53,888 bases of DNA from the IMG/VR virus record IMGVR_UViG_3300031578_000046, positions 1 to 53,888 of that record; one strand, 5' to 3'. Both the position numbers and the translations under genes were made by a program. Shown here in pieces: positions 4,750 through 51,690 of this stretch (position 1 is the first letter of the stretch; the number at the start of each line of letters is the position of its first letter). The notes beneath the pieces were generated by a model. The model was not told where the DNA came from and ran no database searches. It was given only the letters and a program-made list of their open reading frames with translations. Source of the DNA: a virus (taxonomy: Duplodnaviria > Caudoviricetes).

Positions 4750-4980
4750 TTAATAATTATCGGTTACAAGTTTTAAACCATTAAATTTATAAATTTTTAA
4801 TTTTCGTTTTATTGCCCCCTGATAGCTTATATTTTCATCTTTGGCATATTGTGATAATGTTTTAATATTTAAAATAATAGCAACGTGTTCAAAAATTTGA
4901 ACCAAATCATCATTATTTAGCTCTCCCTTATGAATACATGCAAATAATCTATCTTTTATAATAAGCGATCTATCAGACAT
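4750..4980 (-). CDS. Small putative DNA-binding (HTH-like) protein adjacent to attI-like site
   Basis: KTLSQYAKDENISYQGAIKR resembles an HTH; start codon 40 bp from the array crossover at 5021. Confidence 0.65.
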   Translation of the reverse strand: MSDRSLIIKDRLFACIHKGELNNDDLVQIFEHVAIILNIKTLSQYAKDENISYQGAIKRKLKIYKFNGLKLVTDNY

Positions 4981-4989
4981 TTATGTTAA

Positions 4990-5023
4990 GTTTAAAATTT
5001 TGAACTGACTTTATACAATTGTT
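4990..5023 (+). other. attI-like array entry site, copy 1
   Basis: GTTTAAAATTTTGAACTGACTTTATACAATT-GTT, directly before the first cassette. Confidence 0.7.
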
Positions 5024-5294
5024 AGCGGCAAGCGAAGAAAGGCTTCGGCATTGGCTTCCAATATATTATTTTATTACTTGGTGGTGGACTGCTTTTATAT
5101 CTATTTTCCCACTTCTCACTACCATCGGTAAATTTAAAGTGCATTAAATGGTGTATTGTTCTGTTTTCAAGCATTACAATATATTCTGCTGTCATATCTG
5201 TTTGCGGTGGATAAAAAATATATGAACGCCAGCCGCTAACAAGCAATATAAAAAATGCCTTAAAGTGTGCTAAAATTGAAGTTCTTGTTTTCAT
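5022..5294 (-). CDS. Cassette gene, DUF551-like C-terminus
   Basis: IIYWKPMPKP motif; starts in attC loop, TAA at crossover. Confidence 0.6.
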   Translation of the reverse strand: MKTRTSILAHFKAFFILLVSGWRSYIFYPPQTDMTAEYIVMLENRTIHHLMHFKFTDGSEKWENRYKSSPPPSNKIIYWKPMPKPFFACR

Positions 5295-5358
5295 ATTTAC
5301 TTTATTTTTAATTGATAAATTAGTTCTTTGTAGTCGGCACTTTTCATATTGCCGACCA

Positions 5359-5697
5359 TTAGGCAACATAATGCGCTACTGCTGCCATCCAAAGTATATG
5401 TATAACGTTATCAACTATCACATGCCCCCAAAATTTGCTAAAATCATTCTGGAATTTACCAGTCACCCTGCAAAACCAAGCTACAAAATGTGTTCGGTCT
5501 TGTATGTAATGTTGTACTGCAATAAGCAATAGTTGTATTAAACTTAGTTCTGTAAATATAAACGGTATCATGTACGTTAAAATGTGTACACTACACGCAA
5601 AGTCGCTTTTCTTTTTGTTACCTGCCATCCAATCATTTTGTAGCAAGTAGTCACCTATTAAGTGGGCTAATATCCAAGGCAAATTTAGTCCTATCAT
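5359..5697 (-). CDS. Cassette gene, DUF3307-like membrane protein
   Basis: LAHLIGDYLLQNDWMA, QHYIQD, DNVIH motifs. Confidence 0.75.
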   Translation of the reverse strand: MIGLNLPWILAHLIGDYLLQNDWMAGNKKKSDFACSVHILTYMIPFIFTELSLIQLLLIAVQHYIQDRTHFVAWFCRVTGKFQNDFSKFWGHVIVDNVIHILWMAAVAHYVA

Positions 5698-5951
5698 AAT
5701 TACGTTGCCTAACAATAAATATAGCAAATAGCCAAGTTAGGCGTGCATTTGTCACTATCTGCGTGTTTATAATCATTTTACTGTATTCAAAGTTTGTGCT
5801 ATTTATGGCTACTTGCCATATTCTCAACGTTAGCAAACATTAAAACGATTTGCTAACACGGTATATAACCAATGCTTACCGTGTAGCTTCGTATTAAGTT
5901 TCTGCAAGTGCTTTAAAAATTTTGCCAACGCTCTTTAATTTTTTTCAAAAA

Positions 5952-6383
5952 TTATTTTTTAGTTTCATCACAAATATTATATTTTGGACAATAAGTACAT
6001 GGCTGTGGAGGTTTTAAAAAATCATCATTTTTTACAGTAAAAAATTCATATAAGTCTTTGCATAAATATCTATCACACTTTAAAGGCATTCTTTCACCTC
6101 CATTTTTAATTATTGATTTTATTCTTAATTTACCATAACGCCAAGGTGATTCTAATTTATATGAATACATTTGTATATTTTTTACTTTACAATAAAAATC
6201 TATACTTAAATACTCACCATCTTCAGATGTTTCAGTTTCTTTTATTAAATGTTTACAAAAATTAAAACACGAATGTTTATTATTAGGATTTTCTTTACAT
6301 GCTTTTTCGTGTTTTATGCAATCATTTGACCTTTTATAAATTTTATTACAGTAATCGCATTTAAAAGCTTCTATTTTTTCCAT
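5952..6383 (-). CDS. Cys-rich (zinc-finger-like) protein inside an attC loop
   Basis: CDYC...HEKAC and CTYC motifs. Confidence 0.65.
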   Translation of the reverse strand: MEKIEAFKCDYCNKIYKRSNDCIKHEKACKENPNNKHSCFNFCKHLIKETETSEDGEYLSIDFYCKVKNIQMYSYKLESPWRYGKLRIKSIIKNGGERMPLKCDRYLCKDLYEFFTVKNDDFLKPPQPCTYCPKYNICDETKK

Positions 6384-6547
6384 AATTTATTTATATTAAT
6401 GTTAAAAAATGCCCCCTAAAAATTTTTAAAACAGGAACTCCTGTTCTCGTATCGAAATTTGTAGGTTTATTCGCACTGGTCATATACCCACCGTTATGTA
6501 CAAGCGCAAAGCAGTACATCTAATAAAGTTCAGTGGGAGTAATTTTA

Positions 6548-6736
6548 TTATTTTTTCTTCCTACCTCCTCTTTTAACATCAAGTTTTCTAACTTCTAATT
6601 GCCAATCTAAATGTATCGGAAATTTTTTACCTTTTAAAGTATGATAATTATAACCTAATTCATCACACATAATTTTTAAATTACCAAACGGCATAATTTG
6701 CTTTTTATACCAATCAATATATAGTATTGTTTTCAT
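6548..6736 (-). CDS. Hypothetical protein (cassette cargo)
   Basis: ORF with AT-rich leader. Confidence 0.55.
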   Translation of the reverse strand: MKTILYIDWYKKQIMPFGNLKIMCDELGYNYHTLKGKKFPIHLDWQLEVRKLDVKRGGRKKK

Positions 6737-6862
6737 TTTTATTTTCCCAAAATATTATTGATGATTCAAATGGATATATAACTCTTGCTTGATGTTTTCC
6801 ACATTTAATACATTTTCTTTCAGAAGGAGTTATCATAATCCATTTATGTCTATGTAATAATT

Positions 6863-7054
6863 TCATATTTGTGTAGCTTTTAAATTACTTAAATCTGGAA
6901 AATTTATTAAACAATTGAGTTTATTAATCGCTCTGTGTTTTGCATTATCTTTAGTTGTGGCATCAATAAACATTGTTTTTCCTTCTGGAAATAATTTTTG
7001 AGCAAGTTTACAATTTCGCCCCTTACTACTTAATTCTACTGCAAATGTTTTCAT
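6863..7054 (-). CDS. Hypothetical protein (cassette cargo)
   Basis: ORF downstream of a promoter-like element near 7082. Confidence 0.55.
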   Translation of the reverse strand: MKTFAVELSSKGRNCKLAQKLFPEGKTMFIDATTKDNAKHRAINKLNCLINFPDLSNLKATQI

Positions 7055-7286
7055 ATATTATGTGATTTTTTTAATTATACGTAAATATAGTTATTATGTT
7101 TCTAATAAACAAGAATTATAGTGTTTATTTTTCTATTTTAATTAAAATATTTTTGCCATCACACAAAAAATAATAAAATTACCTTTCTTCGTAGCGTGCT
7201 AAGTGGCTGATAATGCGCCAGTACATAACACGCAATAAAGCACATTAAAACGATGCCTTATTGCTGTCCGTTGTACGCAATAAAAA

Positions 7287-7493
7287 TTACTTACGTACTA
7301 GTATATTTAATGGTTCTTTGCCTTTTCCTATCAAATATTTATCTACCGCAATTGCAGCTTCTCTTTCTGTATCATAAGTTTTTCTGCAAACATTTGGCAG
7401 TGTTATCATCCAGTAATTTTTATCAGTAGTTTGAGCACACTGCTGTACATATTTGTATTTACTTTTTCCGTATTTTGTTGTCTGTTGTGCCAT
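7287..7493 (-). CDS. AP2-like DNA-binding protein (cassette gene)
   Basis: SKYKYV...W...TYDTEREAAIAVD pattern. Confidence 0.55.
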   Translation of the reverse strand: MAQQTTKYGKSKYKYVQQCAQTTDKNYWMITLPNVCRKTYDTEREAAIAVDKYLIGKGKEPLNILVRK

Positions 7494-7602
7494 AAGTCGT
7501 AATTTTAAAAGCGTACAACACGCTGTATAGTTAATAAGCCGGATAGTTTTGTGCGTTGATTTGGGGCTGTGTGGTCGGCTTACATAACCATACAGCCATC
7601 CA

Positions 7603-7896
7603 TTATAAACAAGCGTAAATAAGCACACCTAAGATTAAACCAACTACAAAACCTACAATTCTGTTATTTATTGGATCGTTCCAAAAACGCCAGTTTATAA
7701 CATTTTGTAAATGCAAGCCGTTTGCGCTCGCATCAGCTTTCACAGCCGCACTATCTAAACTATCAAATACGGTGTCTTTAATCTCATCCCATATTTCAGG
7801 TTCGTGTTTTTTAATCAACCTTAATAATTTAAAGTAAGTTTCTCCATTCATTGAAACTCCGCTAATTGTCACTTTTACATCTTTAATATCTGCCAT
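7603..7896 (-). CDS. Cassette gene with C-terminal TM helix
   Basis: Starts in attC loop, TAA at crossover. Confidence 0.6.
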   Translation of the reverse strand: MADIKDVKVTISGVSMNGETYFKLLRLIKKHEPEIWDEIKDTVFDSLDSAAVKADASANGLHLQNVINWRFWNDPINNRIVGFVVGLILGVLIYACL

Positions 7897-7975
7897 CGCT
7901 CGGTTATTTATAATTTATATTCACGTTCATAATTTTGTGCTATTTTCAACAACGGCCAGCACTTACAAGTTGCCG

Positions 7976-8281
7976 TTAGCGGCAAGCTGGCCTCCACAAT
8001 TCAAATTTATCCATTAATCCGTCATCCCTCATCACCTTACCTACTCCTATATATTCAGCTTCTACCCAATCTATATTTCCTTTATATCTAATTCTATCAC
8101 CTATTTCTGGCTTTTCATCTTCAATATTCAGCCAGCCGCTAACATGCGGTATAGGTAATTTGCCGTCCTCCGATTTAAGTTTGTGCAAATCTGCCAAAAA
8201 ATTATCAACTAATTCTTTTGTTTCAAATCCTTCCAATGCTTTAGAAAGATTTTCATACTTTGTTATTAATTTCTGTATCAT
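7976..8281 (-). CDS. Cassette gene, hypothetical
   Basis: Starts in attC loop (LPIPHVSG), TAA at crossover. Confidence 0.6.
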   Translation of the reverse strand: MIQKLITKYENLSKALEGFETKELVDNFLADLHKLKSEDGKLPIPHVSGWLNIEDEKPEIGDRIRYKGNIDWVEAEYIGVGKVMRDDGLMDKFELWRPACR

Positions 8282-8355
8282 AATTTTTTTAAGTTAAGTA
8301 TTTCAATTCAAGTCTGGTGCGGTGCGTGGGGCAAACATACCCATACCGCCAGCCG

Positions 8356-8607
8356 TTAGGCACAATGGTAAGTTGCACCTTTCTTCCATTCCTCCACACG
8401 CTTTTGTGCTGCCTCTAATGTTTTAAAGCTTTTACTAAATGGTTGTAGTATCGGCCAAGTTTGTATCACACCACCCCACGCATTTGTTCTGTACCAACTC
8501 CATTCTTTGCGTTTCCACCAAAGCATTCCTTTTTCTTCATATCCTCGTATTTGTATCTCAAATGCTCCGCAATATTCTCTAATTCTATATTCTACTTCTT
8601 TTTTCAT
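8356..8607 (-). CDS. Cassette gene, hypothetical
   Basis: Fills the cassette body, TAA at crossover. Confidence 0.6.
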   Translation of the reverse strand: MKKEVEYRIREYCGAFEIQIRGYEEKGMLWWKRKEWSWYRTNAWGGVIQTWPILQPFSKSFKTLEAAQKRVEEWKKGATYHCA

Positions 8608-8748
8608 AAACCACTGTGCCTAACAATAAATATAGCAAATAGCCAAGTTAGGCTTGTATTTGTCACTATTTGCATGTTTATAATCATTTTACTGTATTCA
8701 AAGTTTTGTGCTATTTATGGCTACTTGCCATATTATCAACATTAGCAA

Positions 8749-9000
8749 CTATAAATTGCCTTCAATAAATCTATCTACGTGTCTTTCTGGTATGTACAGG
8801 TGCATTTCCTCGTCCTCATTAATCCATTCACGAAAGGCAATTAACAGTTCCCTTCGGTTGCTAACAACGGGTATAGCAAATAATTTTACTATCTTTTCTG
8901 TGTAATTGTTAATACTTTCTTGTATTTCACCAATTGTATTATCTCTCTCGGTAATCTGATTCTCAAATTCAATTAATAATTTTTTTACTTCTTTTTTCAT
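8749..9000 (-). CDS. Cassette gene, hypothetical
   Basis: Starts in attC loop (FAIPVVSN). Confidence 0.6.
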   Translation of the reverse strand: MKKEVKKLLIEFENQITERDNTIGEIQESINNYTEKIVKLFAIPVVSNRRELLIAFREWINEDEEMHLYIPERHVDRFIEGNL

Positions 9001-9055
9001 AATATAGTTTTTTAGTGTTTCAAATCCGTAAAATTACATTGCCATACCCAAAACG

Positions 9056-9295
9056 TTATAAAACATTTGCCAACCGCACTATTGTTGTCAATTTAATTTC
9101 TTCTTTTTTCAGTGGACATTCATTTGGGATATTTCCGTCACGGCTATTCTCGTGTGTTATTATCATACACTTGTATGGGTCTTTAAGCTTTTCAAAATAT
9201 GGATGACCACATTTCATAGCATTTCCTGATGTCGTGTAGAATGGACATTCATTCCAACATCCTTTTACTTTTTTGGTTTTCTTTATAATTTCCAT
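9056..9295 (-). CDS. Cassette gene, Cys-rich hypothetical
   Basis: CWNECPF...CPLK; TAA at crossover. Confidence 0.6.
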   Translation of the reverse strand: MEIIKKTKKVKGCWNECPFYTTSGNAMKCGHPYFEKLKDPYKCMIITHENSRDGNIPNECPLKKEEIKLTTIVRLANVL

Positions 9296-9490
9296 CGTTA
9301 AAAACGTTTTATAACAACGTATAAAATTAATTGCTACGTTATTGGGTTATTTAATGTATTTACTTTTAATCAATTTTTAGTAGTTTGCGAAAGTCGTGCA
9401 TCTAACACGCAACTAATCTTATACCAACGTTATACACAAGCGTAAGAAAGTTTCGTTCATTTAATCAACACCTGTGCAACCTTGCCATAA

Positions 9491-9679
9491 TTATTTTTTG
9501 CCTTCGCTCTTACAATTTTTCAAATTGTTTAGGAATTGGTTTAATGGTTCTTCCCAATGTTTAGCAAGTTTTTGAGAGCCGTTAACAGCTTTTACTAAAG
9601 TAGTGTCGGGCATCTTTAATTGTCGTTCTATTCCTCTAAGGCTTAACGAGTCTTTATTTTTTCTTAGCCATTCTAACAT
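9491..9679 (-). CDS. Small HTH protein (cassette cargo)
   Basis: LSLRGIERQLKMPDTTLVKAVNG, Cro-like HTH. Confidence 0.6.
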   Translation of the reverse strand: MLEWLRKNKDSLSLRGIERQLKMPDTTLVKAVNGSQKLAKHWEEPLNQFLNNLKNCKSEGKK

Positions 9680-10050
9680 GAAGCTCCGCTTAAATAGTTA
9701 GCCATATTGCATGTATCAAATAATGATGCAGGTTTTTTAATCCTTTCATTATTTTCTTCTAATCCTTTTAGGATCCATTCTAATTTTTGAATGTCTTGTA
9801 TTTGCTCCATTATCGTAATTCTGCCTTTACTTTCTCCTTCGCTACCAGTTTTATGAACTAAACACACAACACCACCAACCGAAACATAAGCACCTATTAT
9901 TTCATATTGGATTAAATCATCTTCAATATAATCAACCCAACCGCAACTACAATAAGCGTTTGTTTTTATACTATTATTAATAATACGCTCAGCCTCATTA
10001 CACATTAGCTTGATAAGGGCTTGTTTTGCTTCTTTAATTTCAGTTTTCAT
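9673..10050 (-). CDS. Hypothetical protein (cassette cargo)
   Basis: ORF downstream of the promoter at 10078-10085. Confidence 0.6.
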   Translation of the reverse strand: MKTEIKEAKQALIKLMCNEAERIINNSIKTNAYCSCGWVDYIEDDLIQYEIIGAYVSVGGVVCLVHKTGSEGESKGRITIMEQIQDIQKLEWILKGLEENNERIKKPASLFDTCNMANYLSGASC

Positions 10051-10077
10051 AATCTTAGTTTTTCGTTAAACAATATC

Positions 10078-10085
10078 CAAATATA
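10078..10085 (-). promoter_or_regulatory. Bacteroidota -7 promoter element
   Basis: TATATTTG on minus strand matches TAnnTTTG, 28 bp upstream of ATG. Confidence 0.55.
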
Positions 10086-10280
10086 AGGGTAATATATTTA
10101 ATATCCTAATATAAAGGTAAAAAAAGAACCCCTCCCTAAAAAATAATTATTACTTCCGTGTTTCAAATGTAGGTAAGTGATTAAACGCCAGTGTATAACA
10201 ACGCATAAAAATAAAAGCCTTTGGAAGCTTATTATTTCAAATTAACGTTGTAGTGTCGGCTTCAATTCTTATGCAAACCG

Positions 10281-10496
10281 TTAGGTTTCATTTGCCACCG
10301 CCACACGGTTATCAGACTCCCACGCCTCAATTGCAAAATGCTGTGACCGTATGTAGTTTTCATGACTACGATAGCCACATTTAGAACATTCAAGCCTAAA
10401 AGCAACACCGTTAAACGAACTGCCATTGTCTCCACATTCTTTGTCTATTTCTGCTTCTCCTCCGCATTTTTTACATGGTATTTTTTCTGTACTCAT
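10281..10496 (-). CDS. Lar-like zinc-ribbon protein (cassette gene)
   Basis: PCKKCGGEA...CSKCG...AIEAWE pattern of Lar restriction-alleviation-like proteins. Confidence 0.55.
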   Translation of the reverse strand: MSTEKIPCKKCGGEAEIDKECGDNGSSFNGVAFRLECSKCGYRSHENYIRSQHFAIEAWESDNRVAVANET

Positions 10497-10670
10497 AATC
10501 TTGTTTTTACCCCACCGCACAAAACGAAAACCTAACAATTTATATATTGCAAATTTTTTAGTAATTGTAGGTGAGTGGTTATTAATTTATTTTATCTCTA
10601 ATTGTTAATTTATCTCATTCTGGTTGCAAAATTCGACAACATATAAGTTGCCGTTAGCAGCCATACAAGG

Positions 10671-10847
10671 CTACTTTTCATATCTTATTGCTCTGTCTTT
10701 CATTATGTGCCCACACTCAATGCATGGCTTTTCAAACCACACTTTACCATCATGCTTACATCCTTTACATACAGTTATTTCAACCTTAGTAGTACGGCTG
10801 CTAACAATATGTTTAGGTAATTGGGATTTTGTGTTATCTTGTTTCAT
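10671..10847 (-). CDS. 58-aa Cys-rich cassette gene (not in ORF track)
   Basis: MKQDNTKSQLPKHIVSS...CKGC...CIEC; starts in attC loop. Confidence 0.5.
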   Translation of the reverse strand: MKQDNTKSQLPKHIVSSRTTKVEITVCKGCKHDGKVWFEKPCIECGHIMKDRAIRYEK

Positions 10848-10930
10848 TGCATTTCAATTTTAAGTTTATCAATATTTGGTAGGGTAGTGCAAGTAATCCC
10901 AACTACCCAAACACTCAACATTAGGGCGAA

Positions 10931-11251
10931 TTAAGCCGACTTAATAAGTTTAAGGCTATCTTCACCAAAACCCGAAAAAGAATTGAAATTATAGCAGGTG
11001 TTTGCTTTTACAAATGCTTTCTGCCAAAGTTCCATCCCTTTGCTTCCAAGTACATATAATGGAGTTCCGTCACAATCTCTAACGCATCCAATTATATACA
11101 GTCTCATTCCTGCATATTCACAATCTTCATCCCAAGCTATAATTTCAACCAAGTCATCTACTTTATACTTGTGCTGTTTAGCGTTATTTTCTTCTCTATA
11201 AGTTTTCCCAGTTTTCGGGTTTTTAAGGTCTGCAATATTTATAAGTTCCAT
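10931..11251 (-). CDS. Cassette gene, hypothetical
   Basis: Fills the cassette body 10920-11275. Confidence 0.65.
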   Translation of the reverse strand: MELINIADLKNPKTGKTYREENNAKQHKYKVDDLVEIIAWDEDCEYAGMRLYIIGCVRDCDGTPLYVLGSKGMELWQKAFVKANTCYNFNSFSGFGEDSLKLIKSA

Positions 11252-11371
11252 ATCTAAAAATTAACTCGCCCTAACAATAAATAAACCCAATATGGCAGGG
11301 GCAAGGTTCTGCCATTGTTTAAAGTTCGGTAGGCTGCCAAACTGTGTTTATTAAAACCGTTGTGTGTAATA

Positions 11372-11665
11372 CTACTTACTAAGCTCAATTAAGCAATTCT
11401 TTAGTATTTCAAACGCATCCTCTTGCGCTGCTTCTGTTGTGGAAAATCCAGCCCCACGCTCACTCGGTTCATGCAAGCTTTCTTCTAACACTTGCAATGC
11501 TTTTTCGGCAGCATCTTCTATTGCGTTATCCACACGCTCACGCTCTTCAATTTCTTCCATAGCTATTCCATAACCTTCCCAGTTATCTACTCCAGCGCAT
11601 TCCAACGCACGCATTTTAGCTTCAATCAACTCTAATTCTTTTAATCTACTTTTTGAAATTTCCAT
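11372..11665 (-). CDS. Cassette gene, hypothetical phage protein
   Basis: ALECAGVDNWEGY motif familiar from small phage proteins. Confidence 0.65.
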   Translation of the reverse strand: MEISKSRLKELELIEAKMRALECAGVDNWEGYGIAMEEIEERERVDNAIEDAAEKALQVLEESLHEPSERGAGFSTTEAAQEDAFEILKNCLIELSK

Positions 11666-11797
11666 TTTATTTAAGTTTTGCGGCTTAAAGTACTACACAC
11701 AACAACGTATATAGTTAAAAAGCCATGTTAATATTCGTTCATTTAATCAGCGTTTGCAGTTGGCTTTCAAACCATATACCAACGTTAGCGGTAATTG

Positions 11798-12178
11798 CTA
11801 CACCACTATCGGCTCTTCGCAAAATGGACATTCGCCAATCTGTATTACTTTTGTTTTGTAGAAGCTCCACGCACTAGCCCTATCAATTTCACTTTCGGTT
11901 ATTGGTGTATACCAGTTTCCAGAAACTTCGCCTGTAATATCATAATATCGTCCATTGTATTTAGTTATTACGTGGTCTTTTTCTTTGCTTATAAAAGCCT
12001 CACTTTCTGGGAAGAATGTTTTTAGCAACAAGTGAAATTGATAACACGCACCATTCATATAAATCATTTCAATATACCTATCTGTTTGGCGAAGTGCGTT
12101 AATAAACCGCAACATACCGCTAACAATACCTATATTTAATTGGGCGTTTACTGCCTCTTCAAACTCTTTTGCTTCCAT
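11798..12178 (-). CDS. Cassette gene, hypothetical
   Basis: Starts in attC loop; GACYQF...HV...YYDITG. Confidence 0.65.
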   Translation of the reverse strand: MEAKEFEEAVNAQLNIGIVSGMLRFINALRQTDRYIEMIYMNGACYQFHLLLKTFFPESEAFISKEKDHVITKYNGRYYDITGEVSGNWYTPITESEIDRASAWSFYKTKVIQIGECPFCEEPIVV

Positions 12179-12251
12179 TTTGCTTTACTTTATATTGATA
12201 ATTTAGTGCTATTAATGCCCAACTAAACATAGCCGAGCCGTTAGCAAACAT

Positions 12252-12455
12252 TTATAAACCGAATCGTTCAGGTTTATAAATTTCGTGCTTCCAATCTTTT
12301 AAATGAGTTTCAGTACTCTTTTTAATTTTTGCGTGTGCAGGTATTTTTTGGTCAGTAAGCAAACATTCGAATATCAAGCCAGTAAATACCTTAGGAGCTG
12401 TATAGTCTTCTAACCAGTAAACTATTCCTATTTCTAAATTTTGTGTGTAGTGCAT
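12252..12455 (-). CDS. Cassette gene, hypothetical
   Basis: Fills the last cassette of array 1; start taken at MHYTQN. Confidence 0.5.
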   Translation of the reverse strand: MHYTQNLEIGIVYWLEDYTAPKVFTGLIFECLLTDQKIPAHAKIKKSTETHLKDWKHEIYKPERFGL

Positions 12456-12745
12456 AATAAAACGATTTGCTAACACAACCTATACACCATAAAGCGATAT
12501 AGTATTGTATTAAGATTAAACATTGTGCTCTTTTTGCTATGTCTATTTTTGGCATGAGTATTTTTTAATTTTTATTTATTAATAAGATATTATTTTTACC
12601 GGCTTCTTTACCTGCATAATAAAATTCTAAAAATTTAGTAAAAAATAACATATCAAATTCTTTTCGTGTAAATTTATTACTTATAGTTTCATAAACTTCG
12701 TCCATAAATTTAGTTATATCAAAACATTATTTTTCTTCAAAAAAA

Positions 12746-16987: not shown

Positions 16988-17038
16988 TAATATTAATTTG
17001 GTTAATATTTAAGACAATAGATTTTCTATTGAATATTG

Positions 17039-17072
17039 GTTTAAAATTTTGAACTAACTTTATTCAATTGTT
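17039..17072 (+). other. attI-like array entry site, copy 2
   Basis: GTTTAAAATTTTGAACTAACTTTATTCAATT-GTT. Confidence 0.7.
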
Positions 17073-17448
17073 AGCAATCAGTTTGCCGAGCAGAGCAATC
17101 ATAATCACCGTGTTTACATATATTGTTTTCATTATTTGCACAAGCATTTGAGTAGCAAACCGAATTGCTAACAAGTTGTATAATTAATGCTTTGTTCTCG
17201 TCTGTAATTTTTGCCCACGCACACTTTTCTTTGTCAAGTCCGTACAAGGCATTGCTAATCTCATTGTTAATATCTTCCCACCTATCATCTTCCTCAATCT
17301 CCTGCTCTTCCTCACATCCGCATTGCCTGCATATAGTTGTGTTTAAATGCCACTTATTACTACATACACCATCGTTTAGGTCAAATATTGCTCCGCAATG
17401 CTCGCAGGGTGTTGGCATTTCCATTTGTTCTAAATCATATTCTTCCAT
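17071..17448 (-). CDS. Cassette gene, Cys-rich
   Basis: CEHC/CRQC; starts in attC loop, TAA at crossover. Confidence 0.6.
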   Translation of the reverse strand: MEEYDLEQMEMPTPCEHCGAIFDLNDGVCSNKWHLNTTICRQCGCEEEQEIEEDDRWEDINNEISNALYGLDKEKCAWAKITDENKALIIQLVSNSVCYSNACANNENNICKHGDYDCSARQTDC

Positions 17449-17529
17449 CGCTCGTAAATTTTAAAGTTTGTATCTCGTATTATCTTTTCTGCAAATTTGG
17501 TAAAGCGCACTAATCATACAACAGTACCG

Positions 17530-17841
17530 TTATGCCCCATTAGGCTTAACATCTTCTACTCTATATTTAAGTACTTCTGTTTCTGAAACACCGCAACACA
17601 CGCATCTAATTACATCTACTATTTCATCGTGCATTATTTCGGCTGCAGGGCTTTGTACTGGCACATCTACCCAAGTGTTACTACGTAGTCGCCCAATAAC
17701 TTTGTGTGTGTATTGTTCATTTTTACAGCCATGTCTTTTCTGCTCAATTATTCCGTAATCTCCAAAATCTAAAACGGGGCATAACAATGCATCATATTGC
17801 ATAGCCTCGTTGTTATCGGTAGTTTCGTTCTTTTTATTCAT
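17530..17841 (-). CDS. Cassette gene, hypothetical
   Basis: Starts in attC loop, TAA at crossover. Confidence 0.6.
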   Translation of the reverse strand: MNKKNETTDNNEAMQYDALLCPVLDFGDYGIIEQKRHGCKNEQYTHKVIGRLRSNTWVDVPVQSPAAEIMHDEIVDVIRCVCCGVSETEVLKYRVEDVKPNGA

Positions 17842-17913
17842 TTCAGTTTATATTTTAAGGTTTGTAATTCTAATCAAAAGGCTACGCAACATATGCTAGC
17901 CATTATCGGCAAC

Positions 17914-18624
17914 CTAAAAAGACAGCGTACCTTGTTTGATACTTTCTGAAATTCGTTTGATTGCCTTGTCAATATATTCTTTGTCGATTTCACACGCTGT
18001 TAAGTGTAAATTCATTTTATCTAATCGGTTTGCTTTATCAACTGCCAAAGCTATTGAGCCGCTCCCGAAATGGGTATCTAATATCTTCATTCCTTCGGTT
18101 GCGTAGTTTTTTAAAGTATAACTATACAAACATATTGGTTTTTGTGTGGGATGGAACGTGCCCCCTTCACGCACTAAAACAAGTGGATTTTTAGTATATT
18201 CACGCAAAGCCCTATTAAATGAAGTGTAAGCAAGTTCAGCATCGGAACTGCTAAAATTACCACGGTCTTTTCTCCATATAATCCAGCCCATCGAAGGCTT
18301 TAAATATTCCACCATATAGTTAGCTCCCCAAATTATTTGGTTTTTGCTTACTCTGTATAATTCTTTAAAGTAATCTTCTGTTGGTATGTTTGTATCCCAG
18401 CCTTTAAATTCGTGGGCTTTTCTTCCTCCGTGGCTTCCGCTTGTTTGTTTTGCACCATCATACCCAATCCCATAAGGTGGGTCAACAATAGCCAAATCAA
18501 AGTATTTATCAGGGTATTGCTTCATAATTTCCATACAATCAGCGTGGAAAAGAGAAAGAAAAGGCAGCCGATAACACTCGCTATATGCAATTTGGGGGTC
18601 GGTGGTATTCGTAAGTTCGTTCAT
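17914..18624 (-). CDS. DNA methyltransferase (N6-adenine/N4-cytosine, beta class), cassette gene
   Basis: DLAIVDPPY, HPTQKP, ILDTHFGSGS. Confidence 0.92.
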   Translation of the reverse strand: MNELTNTTDPQIAYSECYRLPFLSLFHADCMEIMKQYPDKYFDLAIVDPPYGIGYDGAKQTSGSHGGRKAHEFKGWDTNIPTEDYFKELYRVSKNQIIWGANYMVEYLKPSMGWIIWRKDRGNFSSSDAELAYTSFNRALREYTKNPLVLVREGGTFHPTQKPICLYSYTLKNYATEGMKILDTHFGSGSIALAVDKANRLDKMNLHLTACEIDKEYIDKAIKRISESIKQGTLSF

Positions 18625-18849
18625 TTAATTTACATTTGTTAAGTTTGATAGTGCAGTGCTTTTAATTCCCAAACTGCACATAGCGGAAACGTTAGCAATA
18701 ATTAGCCATCACACGCCATTCATTCTACTTTCAATGATTAGAAATCCATTCTACTATTTGGCGAACCCTCAAAGTTCTAATAAATTCCCTTTGTATTTTA
18801 AGCAAATTATACCTAATAATATTTGAATTATTTCCCATATTAATCCATA

Positions 18850-22773: not shown

Positions 22774-22828
22774 TTAATAATTATCAGTTACAAGTTTTAA
22801 ACAAATTAATAAGCGATCTATCAGTCAT
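22774..22828 (-). pseudogene. Internally deleted remnant of gene 4750..4980
   Basis: Sequence matching 4750-4778 is joined to sequence matching 4959-4980. Confidence 0.75.
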
Positions 22829-22837
22829 TTATATTTA

Positions 22838-22871
22838 GTTTAAAATTTTGAACTAACTTTATTCAATTGTT
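22838..22871 (+). other. attI-like array entry site, copy 3
   Basis: GTTTAAAATTTTGAACTAACTTTATTCAATT-GTT. Confidence 0.7.
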
Positions 22872-22879
22872 GTGCGCAA

Positions 22880-23170
22880 TTAAAACGCACCTTCCTGCTC
22901 AATTTCTTCTATCTTTAATTCAAGTTCATCCACATTTTCTGCTTCTTCAATACCCCATTGTCTTAGTTCGTCATTACTTGCCCTTAATTCTTCCAAATAA
23001 TCAATGCAACTTTCAAGTTCATAAGACATATCAGCGGCTGCGGAGTATAAATCATCGTATTCAAGTCCTTCTAACTCTCTGTCTTTATACAATACTTGCT
23101 TTATAGCTTTTATGTATTTATCAATATCAGGGCAAGTATGCTTTATCGGTTCTCTAATATGTGAAGCCAT
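22880..23170 (-). CDS. Cassette gene, coiled-coil phage protein
   Basis: HTCPDID...LEELRASNDELRQWG. Confidence 0.65.
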   Translation of the reverse strand: MASHIREPIKHTCPDIDKYIKAIKQVLYKDRELEGLEYDDLYSAAADMSYELESCIDYLEELRASNDELRQWGIEEAENVDELELKIEEIEQEGAF

Positions 23171-23314
23171 AATTAACTGCGCACAACACTAAATAAAACA
23201 AATAGCCGTGCTATGCGGTCTTTTTAAAGCTATTTGTAAGTTTGTAATATATTTAATCTTTGTAGCTATTATCTTGGGCTACTAGTTTTATTATTTACGT
23301 TAGCAACAAGCCTG

Positions 23315-23683
23315 CTATTCAAAGCATTTTTTATTCTTGTTGCATACGTGGTTTATTGGTCTTATAGTGCAATTACTAGCATTTTTGCAGGCCAGATTGC
23401 TAACACCAAATATATTTAATGCTTGGTTGGTGCTTTTAATAGGCATTTCGCCCTCACACACTTTTTGCAAAGCTTCTATATCTATCAAGTTTAGTTCTTC
23501 AGCAATACTATATGCTATCTCATACGTGCCTTTTGCTTTTTTGGGCTTATGGTTTCTAAACTCAATTTCTCTGCCTAACTCAAAGTCGTATCTCTTATCT
23601 GTAAAAGGCACTTGCTTCGTGTAGCTGTAATCAACTATTAGCTTCCTTTGGTGTCCATCAAATTTTATGTTATATATTGCCAT
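23315..23683 (-). CDS. Cassette gene, hypothetical
   Basis: Starts in attC loop (LNIFGVSN). Confidence 0.6.
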   Translation of the reverse strand: MAIYNIKFDGHQRKLIVDYSYTKQVPFTDKRYDFELGREIEFRNHKPKKAKGTYEIAYSIAEELNLIDIEALQKVCEGEMPIKSTNQALNIFGVSNLACKNASNCTIRPINHVCNKNKKCFE

Positions 23684-23757
23684 CGCTCTGTATTTTTATC
23701 GTTTGTACTATTAATTAAAGTTCGTGCTAATTTTACGCACTAAACATATTTTTTTCG

Positions 23758-23967
23758 TTAGCGGTCATTGTCGTTCTTTTTCAACCATCGCATAAATGAG
23801 TTAAACCCTGCATCTATTTCGGCTTCTGGGCTATATGGTGCAACTTCTCCTAAGTTTGTAGCTTTCCATTCATCTACCAATTTTTCTACTTTTTGGTAAA
23901 ACAACGAACCGCTAACACTAAATATAGGCAAATTGCCGTTTTTATTTGTTTCTTTATTTGTACTCAT
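23758..23967 (-). CDS. Cassette gene, hypothetical
   Basis: Starts in attC loop (LPIFSVSG), TAA at crossover. Confidence 0.6.
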   Translation of the reverse strand: MSTNKETNKNGNLPIFSVSGSLFYQKVEKLVDEWKATNLGEVAPYSPEAEIDAGFNSFMRWLKKNDNDR

Positions 23968-24031
23968 AGGTCAGTTTATTTTATTAAGTTTCTACTAATT
24001 TTCAAGGGCAATCAGCCCATATTATTTTCCA

Positions 24032-24220
24032 TTATAAACAATAAAAATATGACAGCATTGCCATTAATCCAACCACACCAATCATACCACAAATCACAGC
24101 AATTTTACCACCTATCATTAATCTTCTACCATGTTTTTCATTTTCAACCACCACTCCCCACACACGGTATTCTGGTTCAATGTGTATTATCTTACTTTCG
24201 TCAATTATTGGTTCTTTCAT
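24032..24220 (-). CDS. Cassette gene with TM helix
   Basis: TAA at crossover; hydrophobic C-terminus. Confidence 0.55.
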   Translation of the reverse strand: MKEPIIDESKIIHIEPEYRVWGVVVENEKHGRRLMIGGKIAVICGMIGVVGLMAMLSYFYCL

Positions 24221-24340
24221 GTTTTAAAAGTTTATAACAATATACATAGTTAATTTACCGTGCTTTATTGCTACATTGGTTTATAATTTAATCTTTATCT
24301 TTTTGTTGTTGCCTCAGTTTAAACGCACCTTACCCAAACG

Positions 24341-24613
24341 TTAACTTTTGCATTTTATGCATTTTTTATCAGAAATTGAATGTTCCTTTAGTGCTATAAA
24401 TGCCTTATTTTTTTCAATTGGACTTCCATTTTCATCGGTAAATTTACATTTTTCAATTTGAGTTACTATCTCACTTAAATATTCGTATTTCATAAAAAAA
24501 TCACGAATAAGTTTAGCACATTGCTTTACCATACTTCGACCTTCCTTTTTACAGGCTTCTTTAAATTTCTCTTTTTCCTCGTCTGTTACTTTTATTTTTT
24601 CTATGTATGCCAT
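24341..24613 (-). CDS. Ribbon-helix-helix-like protein
   Basis: EKIKVTDEEKEKFKEACKKEGRSMVKQCAKLIRDF. Confidence 0.5.
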   Translation of the reverse strand: MAYIEKIKVTDEEKEKFKEACKKEGRSMVKQCAKLIRDFFMKYEYLSEIVTQIEKCKFTDENGSPIEKNKAFIALKEHSISDKKCIKCKS

Positions 24614-25027: not shown

Positions 25028-25082
25028 TTAATAATTATCAGTTACAAGTTTTAAACAAATTAATAAGCGATCTATCAGTCAT
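25028..25082 (-). pseudogene. Second deleted remnant of gene 4750..4980
   Basis: Same deletion junction as 22774-22828. Confidence 0.75.
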
Positions 25083-25091
25083 TTATATTTA

Positions 25092-25125
25092 GTTTAAATT
25101 TTTGAACTGACTTTATTCAATTGTT
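25092..25125 (+). other. attI-like array entry site, copy 4
   Basis: GTTTAAATTTTTGAACTGACTTTATTCAATT-GTT. Confidence 0.7.
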
Positions 25126-25280
25126 ATCGTTCATTGCCGTGAAAAGGCAGTGTTTAAAACGAATAGAAAGAAGCACGGCAACGAAAACGATAACAATGCG
25201 TAAATTCCATGCTTACTTTCTACCTCGTTTCTAAGTCGGTGGGTAATCGAGCAATTAAAAATAAAAGCCCTCACACCGTT

Positions 25281-25511
25281 CTAATCAACTTCGGTAAAAT
25301 CTACATAATAAGTTTTACCAGGAACTAAATAATCTTTGGCAACTGCATTTTTATCAACCTGTATGGTTATGTTACCAGACGGTGTCGCTTCTGCAAACTG
25401 ATTATTTTCCTCGTTGTCTTTGTCATTAGTTCCGTAAACCGCTGACAATTTTGCCTCTTTGTTTCCATAACTGTATTCAGTTACAGAATCGCAATTAAAT
25501 TTTGCTCTCAT
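25281..25511 (-). CDS. Conserved-looking small phage protein inside an attC loop
   Basis: MRAKFNC...EENNQFAEATPSG...YYVDF. Confidence 0.65.
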   Translation of the reverse strand: MRAKFNCDSVTEYSYGNKEAKLSAVYGTNDKDNEENNQFAEATPSGNITIQVDKNAVAKDYLVPGKTYYVDFTEVD

Positions 25512-25638
25512 TTGTAAAGTATTTATTATTTGGGTACTCTATTAAAAGTTTTCCCCTTCCCTTTTTTATTTTTAATTTGTTCTCGTTTCAACTTCATCGG
25601 TTATTCCGCACGTAACTTACGCTAATCATTATATGGCA

Positions 25639-25821
25639 TTAAAGAGCAAGTTCACAAGCCTTACTTCCGTCTTTTAATCTTAAGCAGAATTTACAGTGTT
25701 TATACTTTGGTAAGTTACACCAACTACTATCAGCGTGTGGGCATTTATCATTATTATGGTCGTAGTCTTTATTAACGCCATATAACACGCTGTCATAGGT
25801 AATTTTGCTATCTTTTTTCAT
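25639..25821 (-). CDS. Cassette gene, Cys-rich
   Basis: Starts in attC loop. Confidence 0.5.
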   Translation of the reverse strand: MKKDSKITYDSVLYGVNKDYDHNNDKCPHADSSWCNLPKYKHCKFCLRLKDGSKACELAL

Positions 25822-25913
25822 CTTTAGTATGTATTTATAAGTTTGTAATTCTAATTAATTTTAGTGCTGTTTGTAGGGCAAAACTACCCATACAGCCATT
25901 CATTAGCCGTAAT

Positions 25914-26351
25914 TTAAACGACCGTTGTAACTGTATAGTCTTTCATTACTATTTGAAAATCTTTGACAGGGTATTTACCAGACCCACCAAGTTTTTCAAT
26001 TAATGAAAGCACTTCATCGGTTAATATTTCTCGTTCAATTTCGGAAATATTTAAACCCTTTACTCGTTCCATATATCTAATAATAGCGTGTTCTGAAACT
26101 TTAACATTACTGTTATTGTTAAATGAATTAATAGTTTCTTTTAATTTAGTTATTGCCTGTAATTTTTGATTGTATTCTCGTTGTTTATTAGCAACTTCAA
26201 TTTTCAAAACTTCGGCATCTCCAATCATTATATTTAATTGAGATTGTAATTGTTTTATTTTTCGTATATCATTCATAATAAATAAACTACGGCTAACACG
26301 GTATATATGCCATGCGCCAATTAGTGTCGTGCTATTATTTAAGTTTGTCAT
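25914..26351 (-). CDS. Cassette gene, coiled coil plus VSEHAIIRY domain
   Basis: ORF; start either in the attC loop or at MNDIRK. Confidence 0.65.
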   Translation of the reverse strand: MTNLNNSTTLIGAWHIYRVSRSLFIMNDIRKIKQLQSQLNIMIGDAEVLKIEVANKQREYNQKLQAITKLKETINSFNNNSNVKVSEHAIIRYMERVKGLNISEIEREILTDEVLSLIEKLGGSGKYPVKDFQIVMKDYTVTTVV

Positions 26352-26387
26352 GGGCGCACGTCACATATACCCATCCGTTAGGTTTAA

Positions 26388-26672
26388 TTAAAAAATACCA
26401 CGAATCAGAGTATCAATCATGGGCTTCAATAATTTAAAACTATCGAGTTTATTGCTATCTACATCATTCTCGGTTATTCCAAACCAAAACAATATAGGAA
26501 GTGGAACATTTGTAGCCAATGCAATTTTCTCTATTACATCCATACTTGGCTTTTTTTGTCCATTTTCCACTTGGCTTAAATACGTTTGTGTAATTCCTAT
26601 TTGTTGAGCAAAATTGCATTGTGTTTCATTTCTGCTCTTCCTAATTGTTTTTACTGCGTTACCTATTTGCAT
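26388..26672 (-). CDS. XRE-family HTH regulator (cassette gene with own promoter)
   Basis: IRKSRNETQCNFAQQIGITQTYLSQVENGQKKPS; TACCTTTG promoter element at 26697-26704. Confidence 0.85.
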   Translation of the reverse strand: MQIGNAVKTIRKSRNETQCNFAQQIGITQTYLSQVENGQKKPSMDVIEKIALATNVPLPILFWFGITENDVDSNKLDSFKLLKPMIDTLIRGIF

Positions 26673-26806
26673 AATATTTAGTTTTAAATTATTTACCAAA
26701 GGTAATATAATATTCCTAATAATGAAACATTGCAAGGTATTTTTTAACTAAAACCTAACAATGTATAAAATTCATTAAAACGAAATTTTATACTCAACGT
26801 TATAGG

Positions 26807-27157
26807 CTATTGCCCTTCAAAATCTTCATTTAGGTATATGCCCTCACCGTCTAACTCATAGCCCATCTCATCTGTCTTCCATTTTACGTGTTTGGTAATT
26901 ATTCTCTTTGTTCCTGCTTTCTCCCCCCACTCTTCTTTGTCGTTTTTGATTGTCACCTCAGTGCCAACTGGCAACAAGCCAATAACAAAGTGTAAGCCCA
27001 ATAATTTTAACTTAGCAGTATTCTGTTTAATAAACTGCGTAGTTATTTGGTCAAGGTCATAATTTCCCTCTGTATCTTCTTGTTGTGCGTTGTCAACATA
27101 TTCCCAATAATCCTTTAATAAATTTTTCATTTCGTTATTTTTAAGTCGTTTTTTCAT
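26807..27157 (-). CDS. Cassette gene, hypothetical
   Basis: Reads through the attC half site (LHFVIG). Confidence 0.6.
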   Translation of the reverse strand: MKKRLKNNEMKNLLKDYWEYVDNAQQEDTEGNYDLDQITTQFIKQNTAKLKLLGLHFVIGLLPVGTEVTIKNDKEEWGEKAGTKRIITKHVKWKTDEMGYELDGEGIYLNEDFEGQ

Positions 27158-49550: not shown

Positions 49551-49744
49551 TTAATAATGCTTATTTTAATTTAGACTAAATAAATATAAGCAAAACTAAA
49601 ACAAAAAAAACGAAATAGCAAATTATTTCGTTAATTTATTTAGAATTGTTCTAAATAATTTTTGTCTTCTGTTTTTTTTTCATAGTATTATTTTATTTTT
49701 CTAAGTTTCATATTTAGTATTTTTACAGATTCATATTATTACCG

Positions 49745-50044
49745 TCATGGCAAATATTTACCCACTACACGTATTTGAGTTAAAGAGTATCCTTCTTCAT
49801 GTTTATTTGTTTTTACAAAAAAACCATAAGCCCCAGCCCATTCATGCGCCCCAGTTGGGAAATATGCGTCAAACTCGCCAAAACAGACAATTCCATATTC
49901 TGAATCATCCCAACTCGCAAATTCTCCCTTTACCTTGTCGCCTATCCTATATTTTATTCCATCTATTTCACAATAAATACTTGCCATAACAATAGATAAA
50001 ATCCATTGCTTAAATTGTGCTAATTTGTTACGTAAGTATTTCAT
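49745..50044 (-). CDS. Cassette gene, hypothetical
   Basis: Starts in attC loop (WILSIVMAS), TGA at crossover. Confidence 0.6.
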   Translation of the reverse strand: MKYLRNKLAQFKQWILSIVMASIYCEIDGIKYRIGDKVKGEFASWDDSEYGIVCFGEFDAYFPTGAHEWAGAYGFFVKTNKHEEGYSLTQIRVVGKYLP

Positions 50045-50110
50045 ATTAAGTTTATTTTGTATTTGAACATTTGTTTTCTAAATCGCAACGTATCTTATCT
50101 GAACCGCCAA

Positions 50111-50335
50111 TTAAGACGTACGGATAAACATTTCACACATTGTGCATCCGTATTGTGATTTTTTAAATATTGAGCATTTACGAAAATCGTTTTTCTCTTT
50201 GCAGTAATTTTCACTATCAACTACATTTGACAAATCCTCAATTCTATCACATTGCGATTTTAATCTTTCAGAAGTTCGGTTTTCCTCTTTGATACATCTT
50301 GCAATTAGGATAATTTCTTGTAATTCAGTTTTCAT
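50111..50335 (-). CDS. Cassette gene, Cys-rich
   Basis: Fills the cassette body; start taken at MKTELQ. Confidence 0.5.
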   Translation of the reverse strand: MKTELQEIILIARCIKEENRTSERLKSQCDRIEDLSNVVDSENYCKEKNDFRKCSIFKKSQYGCTMCEMFIRTS

Positions 50336-50662
50336 TTTGATTAAAATATTAACTGGCGGTAACACACAATAAAAAATATATGGGTGTTTGTGCCAAATTG
50401 TGCAGCTGTACCTTTAATTTGATTCAATGTATGCGGATAGGCTACTGCTTTAAATCCCATACATTTCTTATTGCCAACATTATACACAAGCGTAAGAAAG
50501 TTTCGTTCATTTAATCAACACCTGTGCAAACTTGCCATAATTATTTTTGCCCTCGCACATGTTCTACAAGTAAGTCCTGTATATAATTTTTAAGGTCTTT
50601 TTTTGCCTTTACTGCAAGTATTTGAAGCTTTTCAAGTACTTTGTTTTCTTCTGGTATATCTA

Positions 50663-50851
50663 TTAGTTTTCGCATTTCCACATTTTTTCAATTTCACTTC
50701 CAGTTAGCGCATGTGCTTTTCTATTTTCATAGTATTTATCACACAATTCTTGTTGCTCAAATTTTGCAAGGTCATAGTTCCACCACGCCATTGCACTTTG
50801 TCTATATTTGCTCATGTTATTAAAAATTATCCCATTCAGAAATACTTCCAC
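50663..50851 (-). CDS. Hypothetical protein (cassette cargo)
   Basis: AMAWWN...LTGSEIEKMW. Confidence 0.55.
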   Translation of the reverse strand: MEVFLNGIIFNNMSKYRQSAMAWWNYDLAKFEQQELCDKYYENRKAHALTGSEIEKMWKCEN

Positions 50852-51557: not shown

Positions 51558-51690
51558 ATAACAATTTGTAAAAATAATAGCCTGCTATGTGGTCTTTTTA
51601 GAGCTATTATCGATTATTAAACTATTGTATTTCAATCAATATTTCTGCGTATTTACGGCTACTATTCTTATACCAACGTTATATGCAAGG

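Follow-up and report, generated by a model that had tools for sequence, protein, structure and literature searches.

Integrons are viewed as bacterial systems run by the integrase IntI, whose extra helix is held to enable the recombination of folded single strands. Own-end complementarity, in which the opening of a cassette pairs with its own closing end, is a property of integron cassettes. In the Xer-dependent modules, such as the single-strand attP of the CTX phage and the pdif modules of Acinetobacter, host XerC/D acts on conserved 28-bp dif-like sites. Here, we describe attC-like sites, organized in six arrays, in the IMG/VR record IMGVR_UViG_3300031578_000046. This stretch of 53,888 bases from a tailed phage was analysed over its whole length and is hereafter called the window. 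Small phage clusters of attC sites lacking an integrase (CALINs) have already been published; 17 were reported, with a minimum of two predicted attCs each, and the examples in the main text have 2-3 (Qi et al. 2023, PMC9892861).

We consider it likely that accessory genes of this phage are stored as integron-type cassettes in the six arrays and are movable by a XerA-like recombinase rather than by IntI. The observations that carry this reading are the common plan of the sites, their folds, the covariation of their flanks, the homology breakpoints between viral sequences, the linkage of each cassette body to an attC, and the association of the arrays with a recombinase gene in related contigs. 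The finding is real and is best placed, as a variant, within the integron kind and outside the IntI-defined family, its activity being predicted.

The arrays resemble bacterial integrons (IntI; class 1 and Vibrio chromosomal) in their head-to-tail cassettes, their GTTRRRY / RYYYAAC cores and a crossover consistent with G|TT. The folded attC (R box, unpaired spacer, L box, and variable loop), the modal length of 80-120 nt and the bottom-strand bias are also alike, and related contigs have a recombinase gene and a conserved junction at one array end. However, the enzyme linked to phage arrays is a XerA-like protein of ~266 aa without the IntI insertion, the phage cassette genes are antisense, and the phage R box reaches 9-11 bp with cassette-specific sequence. 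This phage also differs in having several arrays, no recombinase, and some attC loops with gene 5' ends. The Xer-dependent modules likewise place a Xer-family enzyme on mobile DNA, with folded single strands or inverted-site modules, whereas here each site is a split hairpin, 40-120 nt long or longer, whose arms are unit-specific. Modules of the pdif type were rejected as a candidate, as the 28-bp XerC-spacer-XerD sites were not found and the unit ends share only GTTA/TAAC.

The published virulent-phage CALINs have in common with the window the attC-type sites without an integrase and the methylase cargo. Compared with the main text of that report (PMC9892861), the differences are the ~30 sites in six arrays over ~28% of the genome, the repeated attI-like junction, the dedicated recombinase family in related phages, and the inverted gene orientation. 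Large phage arrays, an array-linked recombinase without the IntI insertion and an inverted phage cassette orientation were not found in the literature covered, which did not include the supplements of PMC9892861 (Table S1, with all 17 CALIN phages and maybe larger arrays).

Cassette units and attC-like sites

The initial annotation had described 17 consecutive units with complementary own ends at 5021-12474. All 17 RTT-X ... X'-AAC units were found in this array (array 1), with attC-like spacers between them, + site polarity and genes on the - strand. The four quoted pairs were confirmed in place: GTTAGCGGC 5021 / GCCGCTAAC 5232-5240, ATTAGGCAAC 5358 / GTTGCCTAAC 5704-5713, GTTGTACGC 7270 / GCGTACAAC 7511-7519, and GTTATACAC 9429 / GTGTATAAC 10191-10199. 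The variable part X is unit-specific, so that unit ends have in common only the GTTA/TAAC core. Pairing identified 30 units in the window; their first base is G, or A in roughly a third of them, and varies independently of the closing C, which a crossover at G|TT would predict.

We counted pairs under two rules. The loose rule (RTT plus 8 nt, with the reverse complement before AAC) resulted in 70 pairs in the window against a mean of 37.5 in 50 shuffles, which is barely above background in this AT-rich DNA. The strict rule called for RTT plus at least 8 nt whose reverse complement stands before AAC-A at a distance of 40-1200 nt, with at least two G/C in the variable part. As a result, 25 pairs were obtained in the window against a mean of 2.58 and a maximum of 9 in 100 shuffles; the reversed order (AAC first, RTT second) gave 10 pairs.

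Every unit has inverted ends, which would also fit transposon-like or foldback elements with terminal inverted repeats, each inserted independently. This origin is highly improbable in our judgement: the inverted ends differ between units outside the core, the units abut head-to-tail in a regular one-polarity series, no transposase is encoded in the window, and no target duplications were seen at unit borders.

The 24 spacers between consecutive units had been given as mostly about 55-290 bp, which is roughly right; they measure 40-636 nt, and 16 of them fall within 80-84 or 112-118 nt. On the + strand, they follow a common plan. X'-YAAC is followed by an A and 1-3 further nt, and then by two complementary stem arms around a variable middle; a stretch of 4-8 nt, in most cases with C as its last base, leads to the RTT-X of the next unit. 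The first arm often begins with (G)TATAG or GCATAA, and the complementary arm often has CCATAY. The smallest clear attC of array 1 (7221..7278, + strand) consists of R'' GTACATAAC, ac, L'' GCAATAA, a loop, L' TTATTGC, tgtcc and R' GTTGTACGC, with 41 nt from R'' to R'. At the other extreme, the 636-nt spacer at 5857..6493 (+) still has pairing flanks (GGTATATAACC / GGTCATATACC) and holds an entire Cys-rich open reading frame (ORF) at 5952-6383 (- strand, 143 aa, no Pfam match), which may be a gene captured in the attC loop or an insertion into the attC.

A scan blind to own-end pairing (YAAC, 2-5 nt, 9-bp stem, 4-8 nt, RTT) returned 31 sites on the + polarity and 7 on the - polarity, whereas shuffles gave 10.6 with a maximum of 22. 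In 21 of the 31 sites, there is exactly one A.C mismatch on the top strand, that is, a G.T wobble on the bottom strand. The 33 attC-like sites counted in the initial annotation are plausible in view of the 30 units and 31 scan sites, although the exact number was not reproduced.

For folding, the first 8 nt of each cassette were appended in silico to the attC of that cassette, to represent the circularised form. The bottom strand of all 19 circularised attCs folded with a paired R box (9/9 pairs in 18 sites and 8/9 in one), followed by an asymmetric internal loop (~5 vs 2-3 nt), an L stem (~10-20 bp) and, at the tip, a terminal loop. The way the units were selected guarantees the R-box pairing, but not the L stem. 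The bottom strand was more stable than the top in 19/19 sites (mean -16.9 vs -14.3 kcal/mol; mean z -3.9).

For the covariation test, 156 non-identical attCs were taken from the window and from other viral loci, and the flank of 22 nt that follows AAC was paired with the 22-nt flank that precedes RTT. An attC's own flanks pair at -13.17 kcal/mol vs -5.59 for flanks taken from other attCs, and 139 of the 156 lie below the 5th percentile of the mismatched-flank set. The R-box/L-box hairpins that the initial annotation anticipated are therefore present. Taken together, the sites have R''/R' cores (RYYYAAC / GTTRRRY), L boxes, an unpaired central spacer, a variable loop and a favoured bottom strand. 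By our own site criteria, ~30 of them in six arrays, with no integrase, constitute CALINs, which are defined by at least two clustered attC sites.

Of the 156 viral attCs, 138 are more stable on the bottom strand. In this phage, the better-folding strand is also the mRNA-sense strand, which would suit a quite different explanation, namely that the units are relic or passive modules whose palindromes are regulatory or RNA elements (terminators, mRNA stabilisers), shuffled by homologous recombination between similar spacers. Homologous shuffling of this kind has been proposed for the promoter stem-loop cassettes of T4-type phages. However, the bias persists in bacterial arrays with sense genes (27 of 33 attCs), so it follows site polarity and not the mRNA strand, which argues for a role at the DNA level. 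Additionally, a unit-specific complementarity of own ends over up to 770 nt would be useless to a local hairpin. We regard passive palindromes as improbable.

Homology breakpoints in other viral sequences

For the breakpoint analysis, 124 viral sequences were compared all-against-all. Of the ends of the high-scoring segment pairs (HSPs), 105 left ends fell at AAC-3 (counted from the C) and 64 right ends at RTT+3 (counted from the R), where ~2-3 per position were expected. Smaller peaks were located at the cassette bodies, with 22 left ends at RTT-2 and 25/29 right ends at AAC 0/+1. HSPs crossing only the R'' junction numbered 334, against 32 crossing only the R' junction. This linkage fixes the polarity, each cassette carrying its attC on the R'' side.

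HSP ends thus pile up at GTT/AAC in other phages, in agreement with the initial annotation, which had tied its proposal to breakpoints at the G/TT positions. Exchange mainly at G|TT, as in integrons, is what the aligned sequences suggest, and some exchange seems to take place at AA|C, perhaps via top-strand events. Cassettes have G|TT ends and each its own attC, except where central attCs stand behind different R'' boxes. The spacers are the most conserved DNA between these phages and could be substrates of homologous recombination, as the passive explanation would have it, but breakpoints confined to a few nt at GTT/AAC are sharper than it would lead one to expect. The initial annotation also held that the phage stores and shuffles cassettes; the storage is borne out, and the shuffling rests on comparison between genomes rather than on an observed reaction.

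One cassette, at 7270..7602 on the + strand (body 7270-7519, attC 7511-7602), is also present in Gundel_1, a cultured Tenacibaculum phage of a different family. The similarity begins exactly at CGTTGTACGC (CGTT), spans the gene and the R'' box, weakens over the attC, and ends at the next RTT. Gundel_1 carries this cassette, perhaps one neighbour, and no array; across its whole genome, units are not enriched (16 and 8 pairs vs 9.3 in shuffles). A blastn search of the array against cultured phages gave three short matches only.

An 18-nt attC motif was scanned against IMG/VR and hit 44 loci, with which the window shares mostly attC sequence. By estimate, this is about the number expected by chance; 18 of the 44 have 5-11 strict pairs on one polarity per ~11 kb, against ~0.5 expected. 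The pattern alone is therefore not evidence.

Seven sequencing runs, labelled soil metagenome, contain part of the array, and the contigs of four of them, as assembled contigs only, were compared with the window. The same cassettes and attCs occur in other contexts within the sampled runs. Metagenome contigs break at attCs, depth is ~three- to ten-fold higher in the attC-rich bin 5671-5927, and 16 of 24 listed loose contig ends lie within 11 nt of a unit border (~10% expected). The listed contig joints have short sides (20-30 nt), probably from other genomes sharing attCs, and were not taken as excision or circles.

The array-linked recombinase and the proposed mechanism

Five array-bearing records were tested for PF00589: two were positive (one lineage) and three negative, one of the latter being rated 100% complete. 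The array-bearing contigs G002 and G003 encode a tyrosine recombinase, and the distance between its start and the array's first G|TT is ~50 nt. Relatives of this recombinase were found in 217 IMG/VR contigs, and the best 80 (57-100% identity) were kept. In these best 80 of 217, the 383 kb upstream of the gene contain 370 units of the expected polarity, and three controls (other polarity, other side) gave 66, 46, and 73. Where the upstream sequence reaches at least 1 kb (63 loci), 62 loci have at least one unit directly upstream, and 48 have at least three. A unit ends within -80 to +130 nt of the start of the recombinase match in 40 of the 63. At 36 loci, the junction is 10-125 nt from the recombinase start codon, mostly 37-53 nt, with a consensus near TATATATAATA|GTTA. 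So tight a linkage to the arrays is difficult for the view of the units as passive hairpins, for which the lack of a recombinase in the window and the promoter-like character of D1 (see below) and other leaders would speak.

The phage recombinases have 263-269 aa, and the catalytic RKHRH-Y is invariant in 20/20 sequences. Among solved structures, the best relative is that of Pyrococcus XerA (4a8e), with an alignment over the full length. The alignment to IntI4 (2a3v) splits, with query residues 177-207 (31) opposite IntI4 residues 180-258 (79); IntI4 has ~48 extra residues between the KDR and HxxR motifs, and the phage enzyme is without this IntI-specific insertion. Among NCBIfam models, the nearest is XerA / 'integron integrase' (NF040815), with 186-189 bits for the phage proteins and a cut-off of 220; the integron-integrase model TIGR02249 gives 156-159 bits, below its cut-off of 265. 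An IntI-type integrase was thus found neither in the window nor in the array-linked enzyme.

A bacterial profile scan with one genome per species detected 555 relatives, of which 80 were kept. These are 39-74% identical to the phage enzymes, mostly 41-49%; most belong to Bacteroidota, and the rest to Nitrospirae, Desulfitobacterium, and others. The 53 bacterial loci with usable flanks (202 kb) have 103 units downstream against 13 of the other polarity. The bacterial proteins have 330-380 aa, an N-terminal extension and no IntI insertion, and score 222-226 bits, just above the XerA / 'integron integrase' cut-off; NF040815 names them 'site-specific tyrosine recombinase/integron integrase'. In Flavobacterium saccharophilum DSM 1811 (locus L182, 7776-15768), a recombinase without the IntI insertion is followed by 9 cassettes. 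In Desulfitobacterium sp. Sab5 (L187), an insertion-less recombinase is followed by cassettes of the same type, with 6-9 cassettes across the two loci. By IntegronFinder criteria, under which an integron comprises IntI, attI and an attC array and the integrase must be of the IntI type, the L182 and L187 arrays would not count as complete integrons. As in phages, the bacterial XerA-like recombinases lack the IntI insertion and lie beside RTT-X ... X'-AAC units, here in arrays of canonical appearance; in contrast, the array is downstream of the gene in bacteria and upstream in phages, and bacterial cassette genes are sense. A blastn search of the window attCs against the bacterial arrays revealed no similarity.

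The sites might instead be ordinary attCs, as in CALINs, that are moved by a canonical IntI with I2 from a host or plasmid, the Xer-like enzyme being unrelated, for example a lysogeny integrase. The core motifs do fit GTTRRRY / RYYYAAC and the R-UCS-L-VTS plan (UCS, unpaired central spacer; VTS, variable terminal structure). According to the main text of PMC9892861, IntI1 recombined 5/6 virulent-phage attCs, one from Polaribacter phage P12002L. In P12002L, the methylase gene gp35 (29237-30011) is bounded by GTTAGGCAC ... GTGCCTAAC, a window-type unit that is part of a published CALIN; the pairs in this phage, 8 and 10 vs 4.9 expected, show weak enrichment. An unrelated integrase is, however, hard to square with one-polarity units upstream in 62/63 loci and the near-start junction in 36, and the bacterial relatives of the Xer-like enzyme adjoin arrays too. 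IntI would also be scarce in the likely hosts, since IntegronFinder 2.0 is stated to find only one complete integron in Bacteroidetes, where integrons are reported to be nearly absent (PMC9024848). We consider a canonical IntI unlikely, though less so than passive hairpins.

Cassette genes were compared with attC polarity. In the window, 11 are antisense and 1 is sense; in the viral loci, 236 are antisense and 44 sense, and the stop codon lies within the RTTA box in 203 of the 236 antisense genes. In canonical integrons, cassette ORFs point along the attC polarity and are driven by an attI-end promoter; this co-direction is thus not found in phages, whereas bacterial-array cassette genes are 96 sense and 19 antisense. 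Cassettes of phages and bacteria therefore look like separate pools on one site plan. A minus-polarity model, in which a gene is followed by its own attC and stop codons lie in the TAAC box, was ruled out by the 334/32 linkage, the position of D1 and of the recombinase, and the asymmetry of the spacers.

D1 is a 69-nt element with four copies in the window (4959, 17008, 22807, and 25061), each ending in CAATT|GTT where arrays 1-4 begin and each preceding a different cassette. Its 24-nt core has 4 occurrences vs 0 expected, and a 34-nt D1 pattern had no exact match outside the window. All copies lie on the + strand: copy 1 (4959..5021) at the head of array 1, in an attI-like position, and copies 2 (17008..17070), 3 (22807..22869) and 4 (25061..25123) at the left ends of arrays 2, 3, and 4. 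No integrase gene stands alongside them. Copy 1 carries the 5' end and upstream region of a 76-aa ORF (4750-4980, - strand); collapsed remnants of this ORF adjoin two other copies (22774-22830 and 25028-25084). D1 was tried and rejected as a homologue of the recombinase-proximal junction consensus, as only ~8/11 AT-rich positions are alike, which we did not count as homology.

In the proposed mechanism, a cassette on the + strand would comprise TT-X, the body, X'-YAAC (R''), a 2-4 nt spacer, L'', a variable loop, L', 5-8 nt, and R, with a predicted crossover point at G|TT. In an excised circle, the cassette's own TT-X would meet its own attC and complete an R box of 9-11 bp, which would explain why unit ends are complementary, yet different between units. 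The recombining form would be the folded bottom strand, here the - strand. The predicted catalyst would most likely be the ~266-aa XerA-like tyrosine recombinase, and most likely not IntI. A phage with no recombinase gene would have its cassettes moved in trans, via a co-infecting phage or a host copy. Excised circles would re-enter at the recombinase-adjacent junction or, in this phage, at D1 (CAATT|GTT) acting as attI. Since the genes are antisense to site polarity, one-directional phage transcription would read the arrays towards the attI-like end. Counter-defence genes are part of the cargo.

Several points weigh against cassettes moved by a XerA-like enzyme. No tyrosine recombinase, serine recombinase, or Y1 transposase was found in any frame of the window, and the arrays may accordingly be inactive; the record is rated 51% complete, so a recombinase could sit off-contig, although the 177-nt terminal repeat argues for a complete record. 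The missing IntI-specific insertion makes the single-strand recombination step uncertain. The insertion is stated to be essential for integron function (PMC8138268), and the I2 helix to have given single-strand recombination (PMC7790495). In 6 of 16 array 1 units, R'' lies inside an ORF and the gene 5' end in the attC loop, which is unusual for attCs, and arrays 5 and 6 are irregular. The central attC at 7519-7602 is 94% identical to the attC behind a different cassette and R'' box in G002/G003, and many homology blocks span only TAAC to GTTA, which a strict G|TT-only crossover does not explain. Whether or not it is also an entry site, D1 could be a repeated promoter region. The contig-only runs, which are incapable of showing circular junctions, yielded no recombination product.

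Beyond this phage, we tentatively propose a second, IntI-free integron lineage, which we hold to be possible and somewhat short of probable. A XerA-like enzyme without the I2 helix would act on folded attC hairpins across Bacteroidota, other bacteria and at least 217 viral contigs, with a mirror-image phage version, its genes antisense and read towards attI, that stockpiles and trades counter-defence and other accessory genes; some complete phages, this one among them, would have arrays only, the recombinase being supplied in trans.

Arrays, cargo, and significance

By our own delimitation, the six arrays occupy ~14.9 kb of ~53.7 kb (28%), in line with the quarter of the genome that had been estimated. 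In array 1, units 1-6 lie at 5021-5240, 5358-5713, 5829-5857, 6493-7229, 7270-7519, and 7602-7701; units 7-12 at 7975-8143, 8355-8624, 8741-8865, 9055-9315, 9429-10199, and 10280-10536; and units 13-17 at 10653-10805, 10920-11275, 11359-11703, 11784-12124, and 12240-12474. The 29-nt unit 5829-5857 is an internally deleted copy of the cassette 12240-12474, its ends kept and its body nearly all gone.

Of the further arrays in the initial annotation, those starting at 17070, 22869, 25123, and 52652 were recovered, and the one placed at 49744 is present with its start at ~49738, where the pair has one mismatch. All have + polarity. Array 2 (17070..18700) has the units 17070-17172, 17529-17785, and 17902-18575, the last with a DNA methylase, and a closing attC at 18575-18691. 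Array 3 (22869..24341, right end approximate) has the units 22869-23187, 23299-23404 (7-nt pair only), 23757-23916, and 24031-24238. Array 4 (25123..26986) has the units 25123-25194, 25628-25786, 25902-26297, 26377-26759, and 26799-26986 (one mismatch). Array 5 (49738..51686), which is less regular than the other arrays, comprises 49738-50363 (one mismatch), with an internal attC-like stretch at 49983-50112, 50479-51168, and 51249 to ~51563 (indel). Array 6 (52652..53183) has the unit 52652-52889 and an attC-like site at 53068-53183. Neither array 5 nor array 6 has a D1 junction. Unit 50479-51168 is a diverged duplicate of 9429-10199; the cassettes 9429-10283 and 50479-51252 have common ends and a common following attC (93-95%), with interiors of 771 vs 690 nt.

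A cassette body contains one to three small genes on the - strand, with ORFs of 50-145 aa, mostly without a Pfam match. The matched ORFs, all on the - strand, include a T7 gp5.9-like RecBCD inhibitor at 11372..11665 (PF25708, 53.2 bits, cut-off 24.5), an N6/N4 DNA methylase at 17914..18624 (PF01555, 49.8 bits) with no restriction partner seen nearby, and an HTH_3 DNA-binding protein at 26388..26735 (PF01381, 46 bits). YunG-like and DUF3307 proteins were also matched, and a Lar-like zinc ribbon gave a sub-threshold match.

The IMG/VR record is classed as linear. A direct terminal repeat of 177 nt with 99% identity (1-177 and 53712-53888) indicates that the window is probably a complete tailed-phage genome of about 53.7 kb; its host is probably a member of Bacteroidota. 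The window has a GC content of ~30% and ORFs nearly all on the minus strand. It encodes a large terminase, portal, major head protein, tail fibre, DnaB helicase, DnaA-C-like protein, PD-(D/E)XK nuclease, DNA methylase, exonuclease, and radical-SAM protein, the last of which (PF04055, 44.9 bits, 1917-2699) adjoins the packaging genes. No tRNAs were found in the window, and an Rfam scan of it gave 0 matches, Rfam being assumed to hold no attC family. The phage had no close relative in a DnaB-based scan of IMG/VR. A repeated leader, TTTTCATTTTGTAAAGTTTTTAGTT (+ strand; 24900-24949, 27144-27193, 27435-27484, and 14266-14312), sits immediately upstream of minus-strand gene starts and is probably a phage promoter or ribosome-binding region.

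More than a quarter of this lytic-type phage genome consists of cassettes, and the site type and the helix-less recombinase turn up again in Bacteroidota chromosomes and hundreds of viral contigs. The finding also exposes a blind spot of integron-finding tools for which the IntI signature is mandatory. If the lineage proposed above is real, the I2 insertion would be no prerequisite for cassette recombination, and the 'hyperplastic regions' of this group of phages would be site-specific cassette libraries. If the system is active, the evolution of attC recombination from Xer-type enzymes would become testable at the bench, and part of phage mosaicism would be explained. Active arrays would also give phages a site-specific route to swap counter-defence genes, with the gp5.9-like RecBCD inhibitor and the orphan methylase as cargo. 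The finding suggests that phages trade accessory genes much like bacterial integrons.

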